Source: Gemmatimonadales bacterium (GTDB taxonomy: Bacteria; Gemmatimonadota; Gemmatimonadetes; Gemmatimonadales; GWC2-71-9). From it: DNA of 64,000 nt. Below are positions 58,590 through 64,000 of this stretch, piece by piece. The position numbers and the translations under genes were made by a program. Under the pieces are notes generated by a model. The model did no database searches and was not told where the DNA came from. It was given only the letters and a program-made list of their open reading frames with translations. Location: NCBI GenBank assembly GCA_052389555.1, contig JBQTHV010000172.1:326-64325 (forward strand), read 5' to 3'. Position 1 is the first letter of the stretch. Every line of letters starts with the position of its first letter.

Positions 58590-58633
58590 CGCGCCCTGAG
58601 GGACTCGAACCCCCAACCCTCAGATCCGAAGTC
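58590..58633 (-). other. 3' part of a tRNA gene (anticodon loop to acceptor end; probably tRNA-Arg TCG) = putative att repeat
   Basis: The minus strand reads CTTCGGA TCTGA GGGTT GGGGG TTCGAGT CCCTC AGGGCGC G, with no matching 5' half upstream. The same GCGCGCCCT string starts again at 63992 at the window edge. Confidence 0.55.
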
Positions 58634-58898
58634 GAGCCGGGTATCGGGTTCCATAGGGCAACTTTACCGCTTTCATAGGGGAAACGCGGGGAGGTTGCCT
58701 TATCCCGCCCCCCGATTGGTCGAAGATTTCCCCCTCAATCTATCCCACAAAATAGCCCACCCTGGAGGCGCTCGCTTCGAGGCCCCCCGGCAGGGGCATG
58801 CAAACGCCCGGGTGGCCGATGCGGGGGGGTGTGGCGGACCAACACCCCGCCCTCCGAAAATTTTTCCGAAGATTTTTTCCTGAAAGGAGTTTGCAGAA

Positions 58899-59421
58899 AT
58901 GCCGGGCAGTCCGAAAAAGAGCGCGAGTCTAGCGAAGCTTCTCCAGGGCATGTTTGAAGAAACCCTGGTGGACTACGCGGAAGGGGACCAACCCCTCCAG
59001 GCGGTGCTCAATAAGCAAGGCATTGTGATGATCGGTTGGCGTGCGTATCTGAAAGAGCATCCTGAGGCCAAAGCGGCTTGGGACGAAGTGAAACGGTATG
59101 GGGCCGAGGCGCTGGCGGAAGCGAGTCTGGGAATCGCGGACGGAGCGAGCAGGGAGAGTACGGCGCATGTGAGCAAGGGCCAAGCTCCAGGTAGCGGTGC
59201 GGCATTGGCTCACTTCCCGCTATGATCCCAAGCAATTCGGGACCAAAGGGGAAGCCGCCGTCAATATCGGGCGGCTCTTTCTAACAGCGGTGAAGGAAGT
59301 GAACGAGGCTGAAACTCGCGAACGGATCGCGGCGATGGAGAGGGAAAAGGCTCACTGGGCTGAGGCGCGGATCGAAGCTCCAGAGGCGGAACCTCCTACT
59401 GTCTCTGAGAGGCCCGGCTAA
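58899..59421 (+). pseudogene. phage terminase small subunit-like gene, frameshifted
   Basis: ORFs 58899..59225 and 59197..59421 join into one family-like sequence (...YGAEALAEASLGIADGA...AHVSK|AKLQVAVRHWLTSRYDPKQFGTKG) if one G of the GGG run at 59177-59179 is removed. AAAGGAG RBS upstream. Confidence 0.6.
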
Positions 59422-59426
59422 GATTC

Positions 59427-61067
59427 CTAGTCTCGACGCTCCGGATCAAATAGGCTCTTCGGCTCTGCCACTTTCTTTAGCGCTCTGGGGGCTTGCTTGT
59501 ACGTTCGTTCCGCTCCCGTGACGCGGGGATACGCGATTCCTTTCCCTGCCAGAAGCTCACCAACTGTGAGGAGCTGAAGCCGGGGGTATTTCTGTTGATC
59601 CCAGGGCGACAGGAAGAAACCCTGACCCGCAGCCCATGAACGCATCTGCTTGGTCGGTGCCTCCAAGCTGATAAGGGCTCCAATATCCGCCTTCTCCGGA
59701 GTCATCACCCCGGCCAAGTCTCGGACATGGCCGGCCTGGAGTTTCCCAGCTTTCACGGAGATGACGATGTGTCGATCCTTTTCCGACCCGTCATGAAAGT
59801 AGAGCCGCCCATCAATGCCACGATCCGCCCCCTTCTTGATTGGGCCGCTTTGCCGCGCTCGGACTAAGCTCAGAGCCCATGCCTGGAACTGGTACGGATC
59901 ATCGGCGGCCAACTTCGCCGCGCCATCCAATGTCGTGGGCTCCCCGATCACATCATATTTCATCGTATCGCCGTAGGCATCACGCAAGCGGCCCTTAATT
60001 AACCCGATTGCGAGATGGGTAATGTCAATGCCAATCCATCGCCGGCCGAGCTTTTGAGCGGCAGCAATCGTGGTGCCGCACCCGCAGAAGGGATCGAGTA
60101 CAAGATCGCCTTTGTTGCTGCTGGCCTCGATGATCCGCTCTAGGAGCGCTTCGGGTTTCTGCGTTGGATAGCCGAGTCGTTCTGCGGCTCTGGAGTTAAT
60201 CGGGTCTATGTCAGTCCAGACGTTTCCCATGAGGACGCCCGGCATCTCATCGAGGTACTTCTTGATCCTTGGCCGTTTGCTCTTCGAGTCGGGGTACCAG
60301 ATGCGGCCCCCAGCATCCAGCTTGGCCATCGTCTCTTTCGAGTAGCGCCATCCGAGCGGAGGGGATGCATGGCCCTTCCATGTGTACATCATGTTCGGGC
60401 GCGGCTTAGGACTCGTCATGTTGTCCAGCATGTACCTACGGCCATCCGAGTCGGTGAACCGATACTTGTCCTCTATATATTCCTGAGAATGAGGCTGATA
60501 GGGAGGATTCCAAGTCGGATCATCACCCTTCGCGTAGTGAAGAATGATGTCTGCCACAGGACTCCAACGCTTGGCATCGCTGTGTGTGCCGGACCGCCTC
60601 CAGGTGATCTCGGCTAGGAAGTGATCCCCGCCGAAGATGGCATCCATCAGGAGCTTCAGGTAGTGGCTGGCGGTTGGGTCGCAGTGGAGATAGATCGAGC
60701 CAGTAGGCTTGAGGACCCTTCGCAGCTCGACCAACCTCGGAGCCATCATCGCCAAGTAGGCGAGCATGTCGTTCGCACCGAGGAAGGTCCGAAAGGCCCG
60801 CAGCACATCGGCGACCGAACCCCCAGCCTCTAGCGTGTCATCGTAGCTCTTGGATGCGACCTGATCCCAATGCCAGGTATCCTCAAAGGCCTGAATCTGA
60901 GCCGGCGCTTGCGATCCATCCTTGGCGGCGAATAGAACGTTATACGTCGCGTTCGAGTTGAATGGCGGATCGAGATACACCAAGTCCACCGACTCTGGGT
61001 TGATGCATTCCCGGAGAACCTGAAGGTTGTCGCCGTAGAACAAGAGGTTCTCAGCCACTTGGGCCAT
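59427..61067 (-). CDS. N6/N4 DNA methyltransferase (beta class) fused to a C-terminal Mrr-like PD-(D/E)xK nuclease-fold domain
   Basis: 546 aa. Motif IV DPPF near the N-terminus and motif [10 protein letters not shown] at about residue 330. The C-terminal 150 aa carries ADRGIDG...VISVKAG (Mrr_cat-like). Confidence 0.85.
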
Positions 61068-61246
61068 TCGCTTGTCCGGGGAGAGAGCAGCACGCTCCGT
61101 ATGAAATCAGGGCGGAAAAGTCAGGAGGCGCAAGGGTTCGGGTCGCTAAGGGTCCGGCAAATCCGAAAGCCGCTTTGCAAGTGCTGATTCATCCCCTAGC
61201 TTTCATGTAGCTGGCGATTCCTGCCAGGATTCGTAGCGAAGGAGGG

Positions 61247-61987
61247 ATGGCGATGAGCTTCATGGTTCGAGCCATAGAGGACATCCGGCGTCAGCAAGAG
61301 ATGTTGGGGCATCTTGACCCGATGATCCAGTTCTACCGCGATGAAGCCCAGAGAAGTCGCTTCGAGCAGGAGGAGCGTTGGCTTCGAGATGCCGAGATAA
61401 TGCGGCACGGAGAGCTTCAGGCCGAAATGGCTCGAAAGGCGGAGCTTCAGGCCGAAGCGGCGAGGAGGACGGCTGTTGAGGCCGAAATGATTCGGCAAGC
61501 CCGTCGAGACGCTGAGGTTCAGGAGGCCGTCCGGCTTGAGGCTGAAGCCCGGAGATTCCAAGAACAGATCGAGAGTGAGCGATGGCTAGAACAGGAACGC
61601 CGGGCGGCAGAAGAGGCAAAGCTGAGGGAGCGCATCTTGAATCCGCTCGGGCTCTCCCCAGTCGGGCTGCATGCGCCTAGGCTTGGAGAGACAATCCAGG
61701 AGACACAGAACCAGGGCGGGAAAATCTTCGACACGGAACGGGAGGCGCGAGAAAGAGTCCTGACTGTCTCTACTCCTCCGCAGATACAGATACCTGATTG
61801 GATATTCGAGCGCCACCGGCCTCGCCGGGCTAAGCCAGTGTCGAAACCTATTCCAGCCCCGCAGGTTCAAACTCGGTGGCACCGATTCACTGCATTCGTT
61901 CAGCGCGAAGCGCATGAGCGCGGCGCAGTATGGGCCTTCTTCGGATTCCTACTCACTGCGCTCCTAACGATCATTGCCATGCTGTAG
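61247..61987 (+). CDS. coiled-coil protein with C-terminal transmembrane anchor, unknown function
   Basis: 246 aa. Long E/R/A-rich heptad region (AEMARKAELQAEAARRTAVEAEMIRQARRDAEVQEA...) and a tail anchor AVWAFFGFLLTALLTIIAML. Confidence 0.65.
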   Translation: MAMSFMVRAIEDIRRQQEMLGHLDPMIQFYRDEAQRSRFEQEERWLRDAEIMRHGELQAEMARKAELQAEAARRTAVEAEMIRQARRDAEVQEAVRLEAEARRFQEQIESERWLEQERRAAEEAKLRERILNPLGLSPVGLHAPRLGETIQETQNQGGKIFDTEREARERVLTVSTPPQIQIPDWIFERHRPRRAKPVSKPIPAPQVQTRWHRFTAFVQREAHERGAVWAFFGFLLTALLTIIAML

Positions 61988-62969: not shown

Positions 62970-63296
62970 TTGCACTGGTCCCTAATCCCCATTGGAGCAG
63001 CAGTCCTCAGTTGGGGTTTGAGCTTCTACCACGGCTGCCAATACCTCCAGTACGTTCAGTCCCAGATGTTTGCCAATGCGAACCTCCTCCTCGCTCAACG
63101 TGGAGAAGGCCCTGTTTCGGGAATGGAGCCTTGGAAGAGGCAGGCAGCCGTAGAGGGCATTAGCGCCGCAATGAAGAAGAATGAGGAGGCGACGAAGAGG
63201 CATTATTCGCGGCAATTTCGCTCCCTGGTTGCTGGTGCAGTTCTATTCGTCGCTTGGCACGGCCTCGCCATAGTCCTCCGGTCACTAGGTAACTGA
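62970..63296 (+). CDS. multi-pass membrane protein, unknown function (5' end possibly frameshifted from ATG 62860)
   Basis: TTG 62970 is the only canonical start. An extra in-frame TM helix (YAYFLLAAAASGIAFAV) lies upstream with no start codon, and an RBS-preceded ATG at 62860 lies in another frame. Confidence 0.55.
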   Translation: MHWSLIPIGAAVLSWGLSFYHGCQYLQYVQSQMFANANLLLAQRGEGPVSGMEPWKRQAAVEGISAAMKKNEEATKRHYSRQFRSLVAGAVLFVAWHGLAIVLRSLGN

Positions 63297-63297
63297 C

Positions 63298-63672
63298 TTA
63301 GCGGCTCGGCTCGATTCCCTTCCGCCAGTAGTCAAGGCGAATCTCAGCGCGGGCGCACTTGTTGGGCTCGGCGCGCTCCGTCTCCAGCTCCGTGATGAGG
63401 CTGGTTAGAGCATCGGTTGTCAGCACTCGCCAAAGCCTGGATGAGTCGGGGTCCTGAATGGTGCCGAGCCGTATTAGCGACTCGGCACGTTTAGTCCTCC
63501 GTGCATACCGCTCCTCGCAGTCCTTTGCGATGGCTGCGGCCTGTGATGAATCAGCGCCGTACCACCAACCAGGGAAGTCACTGTTCGGTGGCGGTGCGGA
63601 TGCGCTTGGCTTGACAACGATCCAGGTCAGAATGAGAAGCCATACGGCTACGCTGGCGACGATTACTCGCAT
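63298..63672 (-). CDS. N-terminally anchored small protein, unknown function
   Basis: 124 aa. MRVIVASVAVWLLILTWIVV anchor followed by a helical soluble part. Confidence 0.55.
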   Translation of the reverse strand: MRVIVASVAVWLLILTWIVVKPSASAPPPNSDFPGWWYGADSSQAAAIAKDCEERYARRTKRAESLIRLGTIQDPDSSRLWRVLTTDALTSLITELETERAEPNKCARAEIRLDYWRKGIEPSR

Positions 63673-63762
63673 GGTTTCGGCTCCTTCTTTGGGCTGCCTG
63701 TTCGCTCACTAGCGACTGGCCGCAGTAAGCGACTAGCAATTGAGGGTCCGCTCGGAAGGAAT

Positions 63763-63942
63763 ATGCGACTTTTGCATAGGCTGTGGGCCTGTCAGCGAAA
63801 GCACCTCCCGGCCCGCGACGTTGCGACAGCGGGCGGCTGGAAGGACACTGCAACCCTTCAGCGGGTCTATGAGGCGGCCGACGTGGAAACTCTAGAGGCC
63901 GTGGTAAACGGTGCTCGGCGGGTGAAGGGAATCGTTCGATGA
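63763..63942 (+). pseudogene. tyrosine recombinase (integrase) C-terminal remnant
   Basis: ...LHRLWACQRKHLPARDVATAGGWKDTATLQRVYEAADVETLEAVV* resembles the box II / catalytic Tyr end of a GGWK-type integrase family. No upstream catalytic domain in any frame. Ends about 50 nt before the tRNA-like sequence at the window edge. Confidence 0.45.
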
Positions 63943-64000
63943 TTTCGAGGGCAATCTATCCCACCAAACTAGCCCAGTCAGAGCTAAGTCAGCGCGCCCT

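Follow-up and report, generated by a model that had tools for sequence, protein, structure and literature searches.

A small integrative element, very probably dead, in a tRNA-Arg(TCG) gene of a Gemmatimonadales bacterium, and its intact relative

At the end of a 64,000-nt stretch of DNA from a Gemmatimonadales bacterium (assembly GCA_052389555.1, contig JBQTHV010000172.1, positions 326 to 64,325; the whole stretch is here called the window) lies what is very probably the dead copy of a small integrative element, put by a tyrosine integrase into the part of a tRNA-Arg(TCG) gene that reaches from the anticodon loop to the 3′ end. The segment in question (58634-63990, 5,357 bp) is low in G+C and flanked by two copies of a 46-nt direct repeat. 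The repeat is the 3′ part of tRNA-Arg(TCG), its left copy being located at 58588-58633 and its right copy beginning at 63991. The evidence comes from these boundaries, from an intact relative of the element in the same tRNA gene, from the remnant of an integrase gene, from a foreign base composition and from the arrangement of the site in a related genome (for all coordinates see Table 1).

The left copy, read on the minus strand from 58633 to 58591, is GACTTCGGATCTGAGGGTTGGGGGTTCGAGTCCCTCAGGGCGCG. It begins with the two final bases of the anticodon stem and passes through the loop CTTCGGA, which has TCG as the anticodon, into the variable region, the T arm and the acceptor end. The original prediction, which had been made from the letters of the window, had noticed this 3′ tRNA fragment without a 5′ half directly upstream of alaX, the gene of an AlaX-like editing protein, and had surmised that it is Arg-TCG. 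The identity could be verified because the same 3′ part sits in complete tRNA-Arg(TCG) genes elsewhere: 43-44 nt of the fragment are the 3′ part of the complete tRNA-Arg(TCG) called by ARAGORN in the metagenome contig L125 (see below), and the tRNA-Arg(TCG) of L002, a Gemmatimonadales metagenome-assembled genome (MAG), differs only at the discriminator base. At 58588-58633 the 5′ half is missing, and the fragment is not called as a tRNA by ARAGORN, whose only tRNA calls in the window are five in a cluster at 47586-48156 (47.6-48.2 kb), namely His, Trp, Glu, Glu and Lys. The TTG start codon of alaX at 58586 (minus strand) follows the repeat after 1 nt, and therefore any ribosome-binding site of alaX falls inside the tRNA fragment (CAGGGCGCGCTC-TTG; window 58584-58600). 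The insertion has separated alaX from whatever co-transcribed it with the tRNA; a promoter scan of the arm adjoining alaX revealed no sigma-70-like promoter.

Of the right copy 10 nt are shown in the window and 30 nt are readable with a Logan contig (L001; 5,417 nt, run SRR34758880), which corresponds to window 58604..64020 and is 100% identical to the window over 58604-64000. All 30 readable nucleotides (63991-64020) are those of the left copy. At either end of L001 the repeat is represented by exactly 30 nt (k−1 for k = 31). Such ends are expected of a de Bruijn contig that was built with k = 31 and is cut off by a repeat of greater length, and we infer that the repeat is exactly 46 nt long (58588-58633 = 63991-64036). 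The left boundary obtained in this way coincides with the point at which the left copy stops resembling a tRNA. In L125 the junction homologous to the right end runs into an intact tRNA-Arg(TCG). Judged from L125, the right copy would continue through 64036 as CCTCAGATCCGAAGTC, then TGATGCTC..., the form completing the tRNA being TGATGCTCTATCCAATTGAGCTAAGGGCGCC or a near variant. The proximal copy is thus presumed to extend outside the window, the repeat to ~64036 and the tRNA to ~64066. The repeat predicted at both ends is therefore real, but it starts at 58588 and 63991 rather than at 58590 and 63992, a shift of 1-2 nt. The extension beyond 64000 proposed at that time was possible up to 64020, where L001 ends; it allowed the length of the repeat to be deduced and did not reach the 5′ half of the right tRNA.

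The intact relative was reached via an intact homologue (P0153) of the element's terS-like gene (terS, gene of the small terminase subunit). L125 (JGI 3300019487) and a second metagenome contig, L126 (ENA ERZ27251177), contain a complete element in the same tRNA-Arg(TCG), with a 46-nt repeat identical to that of the window and with 6.5 kb between the att copies; they are the only intact relatives that share both ends. Window 58588-59377 aligns with L125 78-931 (70% nucleotide identity) and window 63782-64000 with L125 6437-6655 (84% identity), whereas between these two end blocks nothing aligns. The stretch from 58588 to ~58830 is roughly 85% identical to the arm of L125, as counted from the alignment. 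The window keeps only the two ends of the plan of L125: on the left the arm and a frameshifted terS-like gene, on the right the last 56 integrase codons and the right arm. Lost are the excisionase-like gene, the primase/helicase-like gene and integrase residues 1-352. The place of the variable cargo slot, which in L125 follows the terS-like gene, is occupied by a methyltransferase gene and open reading frames (ORFs) for membrane-type proteins.

The integrase gene had been described as cut down to its last ~60 codons beside the presumed tRNA, which we can now specify: 51 of the 56 codons left specify residues identical to residues 353-408 of the L125 integrase. The remnant is 55% identical to the intact integrase P0002, which has PF00589. 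An exhaustive phmmer search with 63673-63942 yielded 737 matches; the full-length ones are 390-430 amino acids long and aligned at the C-terminus, and those scanned carry PF00589 (7 of 8 above the Pfam cut-off). About 14% of the gene is left, the catalytic tyrosine included, and the remnant is not functional. Nothing was found with the 59-amino acid stump in a word-indexed homologue search, by tblastn against GenBank phages or by phmmer against the PDB, and the 64-kb window contains no second integrase piece. The breakpoint of the deletion can tentatively be placed at about 63775. Upstream of it, 63688-63774 showed a weak likeness to residues 324-352 of P0002, which was not reproduced with the much closer L125 integrase, and the region was discarded as a further piece of integrase. 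Two related loci are in a comparable state. L116 has a 93-amino acid integrase stump (425-706) beside tRNA-Gln, and the integrase of L117 seemingly has a 1-nt frameshift (~190-215), judged from the raw sequence. It seems that elements of this clade repeatedly end up with an integrase stump next to the tRNA, the natural series leading from the intact element via the frameshifted integrase (L117) to the stump (L116 and window).

At the other end the terS-like gene is interrupted, as had been proposed, by a 1-nt insertion. Upon removal of one G the two ORFs merge to a 173-amino acid product that matches PF20901 (E 3.3e-10, above cut-off) with residues 48-118, which span the junction, whereas the separate halves match no family. 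The merged product aligns end to end (62-66% identity) with four intact PF20901 proteins of 173-189 amino acids (P0151-P0154).

The composition of the segment is foreign. Its G+C content is 0.58 versus 0.674 in the rest of the window, the G+C content at third codon positions (GC3) is 0.62-0.70 versus 0.81-0.86 in alaX and its neighbour, and the tetranucleotide distance to the native part is 0.050 versus 0.012-0.021 for native 5.4-kb segments. The ends of the island and its cargo share one uniform composition. The drop in G+C between the boundaries was thus borne out, together with the reported absence from the element of a frequent 9-mer and of "zipper repeats". The absence of the 9-mer, CGGGTTAGG, is weak evidence of foreignness: it occurs 38 times in 1-58587, whereas the element, in which ~3.5 copies are expected, lacks it (P ~0.03). 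The 9-mer is found on both strands of the native part as CGGGTTAGG / CCTAACCCG (e.g., at 57394, 55828 and 55315), often as GCGGGTTAGG, and appears to be a short repeat scattered over the host genome. The zipper repeats are presumably heptamer arrays, of which the element has none; 7-nt tandem arrays of (CCAATAG)n in inverted blocks and similar ones of (GAGGTGA)n are present at 21163-21250, 38080-38195, 54990-55095, 3274-3310 and 42611-42720. CGAAGATTTY occurs in four exact copies, all within the element (58721, 58867, 61721 on the minus strand, and 62732), and in a copy with one mismatch at 63937. It was rejected as a motif, a top 9-mer count of at least 4 arising in 27 of 200 Markov simulations (~13%).

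The nearest genome relative in the GTDB representative set is L002, whose AlaX is 62% identical to that of the window. There, alaX is preceded on its own strand, at a distance of 617 nt, by an intact tRNA-Arg(TCG). A single membrane ORF of ~200 amino acids lies in the interval, which contains none of the genes of the island; the synteny with the window runs 5 kb downstream of alaX. This arrangement supports an insertion at tRNA-Arg(TCG). The original prediction had proposed a comparison with related genomes for an empty site, with the tRNA immediately followed by alaX. In L002 the element is indeed missing between the two, yet an ORF sits there. The exact junction of tRNA end and alaX start is absent from the JGI metagenome contigs.

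Besides the att repeat there is an imperfect direct repeat of ~40 nt inside the element, one copy near each end, which had been noted as either arm-type sites or the scar of a second element. The repeat is real, its local alignment score being 16 versus 8.2 ± 1.0 in shuffled sequences (maximum 13 in 1000). Read on the tRNA strand it consists, in each arm, of a tandem pair of 12-13-nt units. We regard the units as candidate arm-type sites of the integrase because elements that target one or the other of two tRNAs have them at corresponding places with respect to the core: they recur in L125 and in L115, L117 and L120, in which the tRNA is tRNA-Gln(TTG) (Table 1). In L117 and L120 the C-terminal region of the integrase is about 75% identical, and in L115 the tRNA-Gln(TTG) fragment begins, like the tRNA-Arg fragment of the window, with the GA of the anticodon stem. 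A scan of the JGI metagenome contigs with the arm motif found one true relative (L120) and five chance matches. The 6 nt between the halves of the repeat (58730-58735 and 63946-63951) are near reverse complements, CCCCTC versus GAGGGC, which may be chance.

The other explanation of the internal repeat, that the segment is the fused scar of two elements integrated in tandem at one tRNA and the left repeat the integrase-proximal leftover of the older one, starts from a real likeness, since the left repeat resembles the surroundings of the integrase stop codon at the right copy (ATTGGTCGAAGATTTC versus ATCGTTCGATGATTTC) and tandem arrays at tRNA sites are common. We nevertheless consider it very improbable. 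L125, which is one element with one left arm, is colinear in this arm with the whole left arm of the window (58588 to ~58830) and has units of the motif at the matching place; the spacing from motif to core is 102 nt, near the 100 nt of L115; and beyond the left repeat there is no att or tRNA fragment that would be a third copy. A permissive alignment past the left repeat gave a candidate for a degenerate third tRNA fragment with a score no better than that of shuffled sequences. Thus, of the two explanations offered before, arm-type sites are favoured by the positions shared with relatives and the scar is disfavoured.

The use of two tRNAs by one integrase clade is easier to understand when their anticodon arms are compared. 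At these loci those of tRNA-Gln(TTG) and tRNA-Arg(TCG) are tcagaCTTTGGAtctga and tcagaCTTCGGAtctga, respectively, which differ in one base of 17 nt (tcagaCTT[T/C]GGAtctga). Williams, in Nucleic Acids Research in 2002, is said to have classified tRNA islands with the anticodon loop as one of the sublocations, an inverted stem around a 7-nt loop being the usual core. For members of the clade to switch targets, the crossover region hardly has to change, though every attP needs the 3′ half of the tRNA in question.

One intact gene of the cargo encodes a DNA methyltransferase fused to an Mrr-like domain. The fusion itself, reported before as one of methyltransferase and nuclease, was confirmed by matches to PF01555 (E 1.4e-45), PF22722 (9.9e-09) and PF04471 (3.8e-07) and by the motifs DPPF and DPFCGCGT; the label "nuclease" is doubtful. 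The C-terminal domain is of the Mrr_cat / NA-iREase1 kind and best fits PF22722, an "inactive REase" family. GADxGIDG...SVK is conserved in it, and SVK replaces (E/Q)xK in all 16 family members inspected in the alignment (16/16). Because the second acidic residue is lacking throughout the family, nuclease activity of the fused domain is doubtful. A separate restriction endonuclease or partner restriction gene is absent from the element, and the enzyme is probably an orphan DNA methyltransferase. The architecture is very common (at least 8000 proteins at E ≤ 1e-100, the best 72% identical). Full-length homologues are found in 32 viral contigs of IMG/VR, which measure 3-59 kb and mostly exceed 30 kb, and homologues also in unrelated islands. 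One such homologue (71% identical) is in a different island, L130, bounded by Mg-chelatase N-terminal domains fused to serine-recombinase domains and by a Mg_chelatase C-terminal fragment (2468-4780 and 11101-12003); that island looks like an insertion in a comM-like gene.

The remaining cargo consists of five small ORFs (p246, p111, p168, the p108 region and p124), which agree with the five small membrane protein genes of the original prediction in that each contains at least one strongly hydrophobic 19-mer by a crude Kyte-Doolittle test. None has a significant match in Pfam, PHROGs, PADLOC (for p246 and p168 also NCBIfam) or any fetched locus, and with p168 and p246 scans of viral contigs gave nothing. 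In p246 three tandem 30-nt coding repeats (61416-61505) specify decapeptides of the type ELQAEMARKA within a long coiled-coil-like region rich in Glu, Arg and Ala. The p108 region is a probable frameshifted gene, for which there is no homologue for comparison. An ATG at 62861 is preceded by a Shine-Dalgarno-like AAGGA, and in the three-frame translation the frame changes at ~62881-62893, the hydrophobic frame being entered at ~62890; the Logan gene caller called no gene in 62861-63296.

Table 1. Features of the element in the window and its flanks, of the intact relative L125, and of the candidate arm-type units in related elements
Feature	Position	Strand	Remarks
Window: alaX, AlaX-like editing protein, host flank	57381..58586	-	PF07973 tRNA_SAD, E 1.1e-11; 62% identical to L002 orthologue, downstream synteny colinear
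Window: distal att, displaced 3′ tRNA-Arg(TCG) fragment	58588..58633	-	From anticodon-stem GA to 2-3 nt beyond acceptor end
Window: left arm (P-arm equivalent), non-coding	58634..58898	.	Colinear with L125 123 to ~438
Window: left internal repeat	58715..58760	-	Core GTGGGCTATTTT GTGGGATAGATTG (58760..58736), 102 nt upstream of displaced att fragment
Window: terS-like (Sf6-type terminase small subunit-like) pseudogene	58899..59421	+	ORFs 58899-59225 and 59197-59421; +1 frameshift near GGG run 59178-59180
Window: beta-class N6/N4 DNA methyltransferase with C-terminal Mrr-like PD-(D/E)xK-fold domain, intact	59427..61067	-	Pfam; phrog_67
Window: p246, 246 aa (244 aa in Logan gene call)	61247..61987	+	Coiled-coil, Glu/Arg/Ala-rich; C-terminal hydrophobic anchor
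Window: p111, 111 aa	61995..62330	+	One segment above hydrophobicity cut-off near C-terminus; second stretch beyond, by eye
Window: p168, 168 aa	62331..62837	+	N-terminal hydrophobic segment
Window: p108 region, probable frameshifted small membrane-protein gene	62861..63296	+	Mechanical ORF 62970-63296 begins at internal TTG
Window: p124, 124 aa	63298..63672	-	N-terminal hydrophobic or signal-like segment
Window: tyrosine integrase remnant, last 56 codons	63775..63942	+	Includes R of box II and catalytic Tyr (RVY)
Window: right internal repeat (P′-arm equivalent)	63931..63977	-	CTGGGCTAGTTTG GTGGGATAGATTG, 14 nt from tRNA end; overlaps integrase stop codon
Window: proximal att start, 3′ end of presumed intact tRNA-Arg(TCG)	63991..64000	-	Identity extended to 64020 by L001
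L125: tRNA-Arg(TCG) 3′ fragment	77-122		46 nt
L125: left arm	after 122		Non-coding
L125: left-arm units	homologous position		Three units
L125: terS-like gene	439-1008		phrog_1482
L125: OMP-like ORF	1466-2002		PF13505
L125: 149-aa ORF	2072-2521		No match
L125: HTH_17 excisionase/regulator (AlpA-like)	2951-3154		phrog_66
L125: AAA_25 protein	3151-4596		Primase/helicase PHROGs matched
L125: two small HTH-like ORFs	4721-5369		Weak PHROG matches, E 0.004-0.009
L125: integrase	5371-6597		408 aa; PF00589, phrog_1
L125: right arm	after 6597		Non-coding
L125: right-arm units			Two units; CCGC replaces CTAT in centre
L125: intact tRNA-Arg(TCG)	6647-6721	-	ARAGORN
L117, L120: units	between integrase stop and intact tRNA-Gln(TTG)		Right-arm pair of the window and adjacent GCTAAGTC
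L115: units (intact integrase P0002)	100 nt upstream of tRNA-Gln(TTG) 3′ fragment		GTGGGATAATTT twice

From this anatomy and the known behaviour of tRNA-targeting integrases the following history can be proposed. The 46 nt that end the tRNA region would have been present also in the attP of the element. On integration, an intact tRNA would have been restored next to the integrase gene (63991 onward), and the original 3′ fragment (58588-58633) would have ended up at the opposite end, beside alaX. Later a single internal deletion, from just right of p124 to ~63775, may have removed the whole core, after which the 1-nt insertion would have broken the terS-like gene and perhaps a second frameshift one of the cargo genes. 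A single deletion is the simplest proposal; recombination with another element is equally possible. What survives are both att copies, both arms with their candidate arm-type units, the methyltransferase and the five small membrane-type ORFs.

With these parts the island is unable to move alone and is at most excisable with integrase and excisionase provided in trans by a related element. Whether it is in fact still mobilisable in cis, having lost its own integrase and excisionase and being moved by a related element elsewhere in the genome, deserves consideration, since L125 has the same left 46-nt att and agrees with the right copy in all 30 nt that were read, arm units are present in both arms and the methyltransferase ORF is intact. 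We think this unlikely: within the 64-kb window, the part of the genome that was examined, there is no integrase of this clade elsewhere. The finding of a dead copy remains our preferred interpretation.

What kind of element died here is best discussed with L125. Of the satellite core consisting of integrase, AlpA/excisionase and primase, L125 has all three, whereas the window has a truncated integrase and no HTH_17, primase or helicase. Both have a terS-like gene (intact in L125, frameshifted in the window) and neither has structural genes. The predicted gene set of L125 is that of phage satellites (PICI, P4, VEIME-like); it would work like a minimal satellite and is assigned to no named family. 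In its life cycle an intact member of the family might be excised by integrase and excisionase, replicate by itself and be packaged, with the help of the TerS-like protein, into the capsids of a helper phage. We know of no helper phage for the L125 family. As a tentative proposal, which we hold to be possible rather than probable, L125-type elements could form a family of minimal phage satellites that has not yet been described, with soil-type high-GC bacteria, Gemmatimonadota for example, as hosts and with an integrase clade that moved between tRNA-Gln(TTG) and tRNA-Arg(TCG), the central bases of the tandem arm units differing between relatives; the window would contain a fossil, kept or not yet lost, with its cargo.

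The terS-like gene and the methyltransferase fusion, with its homologues in mostly large viral contigs, could also be taken to indicate that the segment is what is left of an ordinary temperate prophage cut to its ends rather than of a small satellite-like element. This origin appears improbable to us, since L125 and L126 span 6.5 kb without genes for capsid, tail, large terminase or lysis, and the viral contigs bearing the methyltransferase share no other gene with the element. In the window element, too, such genes were not found with Pfam, PHROGs and NCBIfam. Rfam gave nothing relevant in the element, and the scans of viral contigs with the arm motif were empty.

Several points weigh against the interpretation given here, in whole or in part. 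The intact tRNA at the right end is deduced from the contig ends of L001 and from L125, only 30 nt of its 3′ end having been read. The comparison with an empty site comes from one relative, whose AlaX is only 62% identical and which has an extra ORF between tRNA and alaX. The frameshifts in the terS-like gene and in the cargo are without independent confirmation because L001, being 100% identical to the window, probably stems from the same sample. Position and conservation are what speaks for the units of the internal repeat being arm-type sites. The cargo block has no counterpart in any relative, so that the single deletion is a proposal beside an equally possible recombination. Finally, packaging by a phage is conjectural and gained no support, though it was not refuted either: IMG/VR yielded no relative of the replication gene or the integrase of L125, of the terS-like gene or of the att sequence.

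For the genome, 5.4 kb can be marked as horizontally acquired and non-functional as a mobile element, which explains why alaX stands against half a tRNA. The orphan methyltransferase, which is probably active, could shape the methylome. The loci compared here provide an example of one integrase clade using two tRNAs with anticodon arms one base apart. If the family is helper dependent, the range of minimal phage satellites would come to include soil phyla that have received little study.

Among known satellites, those of the PICI/SaPI type are similar to L125 in having an integrase, an HTH excisionase/AlpA-like protein, a primase/helicase-like protein, an integrase-distal terS and variable cargo, and in lacking structural genes. 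L125 differs in its size (6.5 kb versus roughly 10-15 kb), and no capsid-remodelling genes or master repressor were identified in it; the window copy has none of the core genes in working form. PICMIs have int, alpA and prim as core and no terminase gene (the word occurs 0 times in the paper), the prototype integrates downstream of fis, and the PICMI model needs DUF3987 or DUF5906 primases (PMC10803314). VEIME modules comprise tyrosine integrases, AlpA, primase/helicases, excisionases and terS homologues (PMC9618062). L125 is like both in its small size and minimal int/alpA/primase core and differs from PICMIs by the terS-like gene, the AAA_25-type protein and integration into a tRNA. The hosts of PICMIs and VEIMEs are Vibrionaceae or marine plankton, those of the elements described here soil-type high-GC bacteria, the nearest genome being one of Gemmatimonadales.

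The methyltransferase resembles the orphan N6_N4_Mtase enzymes of phages and islands (phrog_67) in its full-length match, in the DPPF and FxGxG-type motifs and in its occurrence in phage contigs and islands; it differs by the fused Mrr-like domain with S-V-K at the position of E/Q-x-K. With tRNA islands of the anticodon-loop type the element of the window shares repeats at both ends, which extend over the tRNA from its anticodon arm to its 3′ end, a 3′ half presumably supplied by the element, a foreign composition, absence from the site in one relative, and a tyrosine recombinase next to the att of the presumably rebuilt tRNA, albeit as a 56-codon remnant only. The differences are that 14% of the integrase is left and that relatives of the same clade use tRNA-Gln(TTG). 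The island is an ordinary kind of tRNA genomic island; what the analysis adds are the identification of its intact family and the reading of the internal repeat as candidate arm-type sites.

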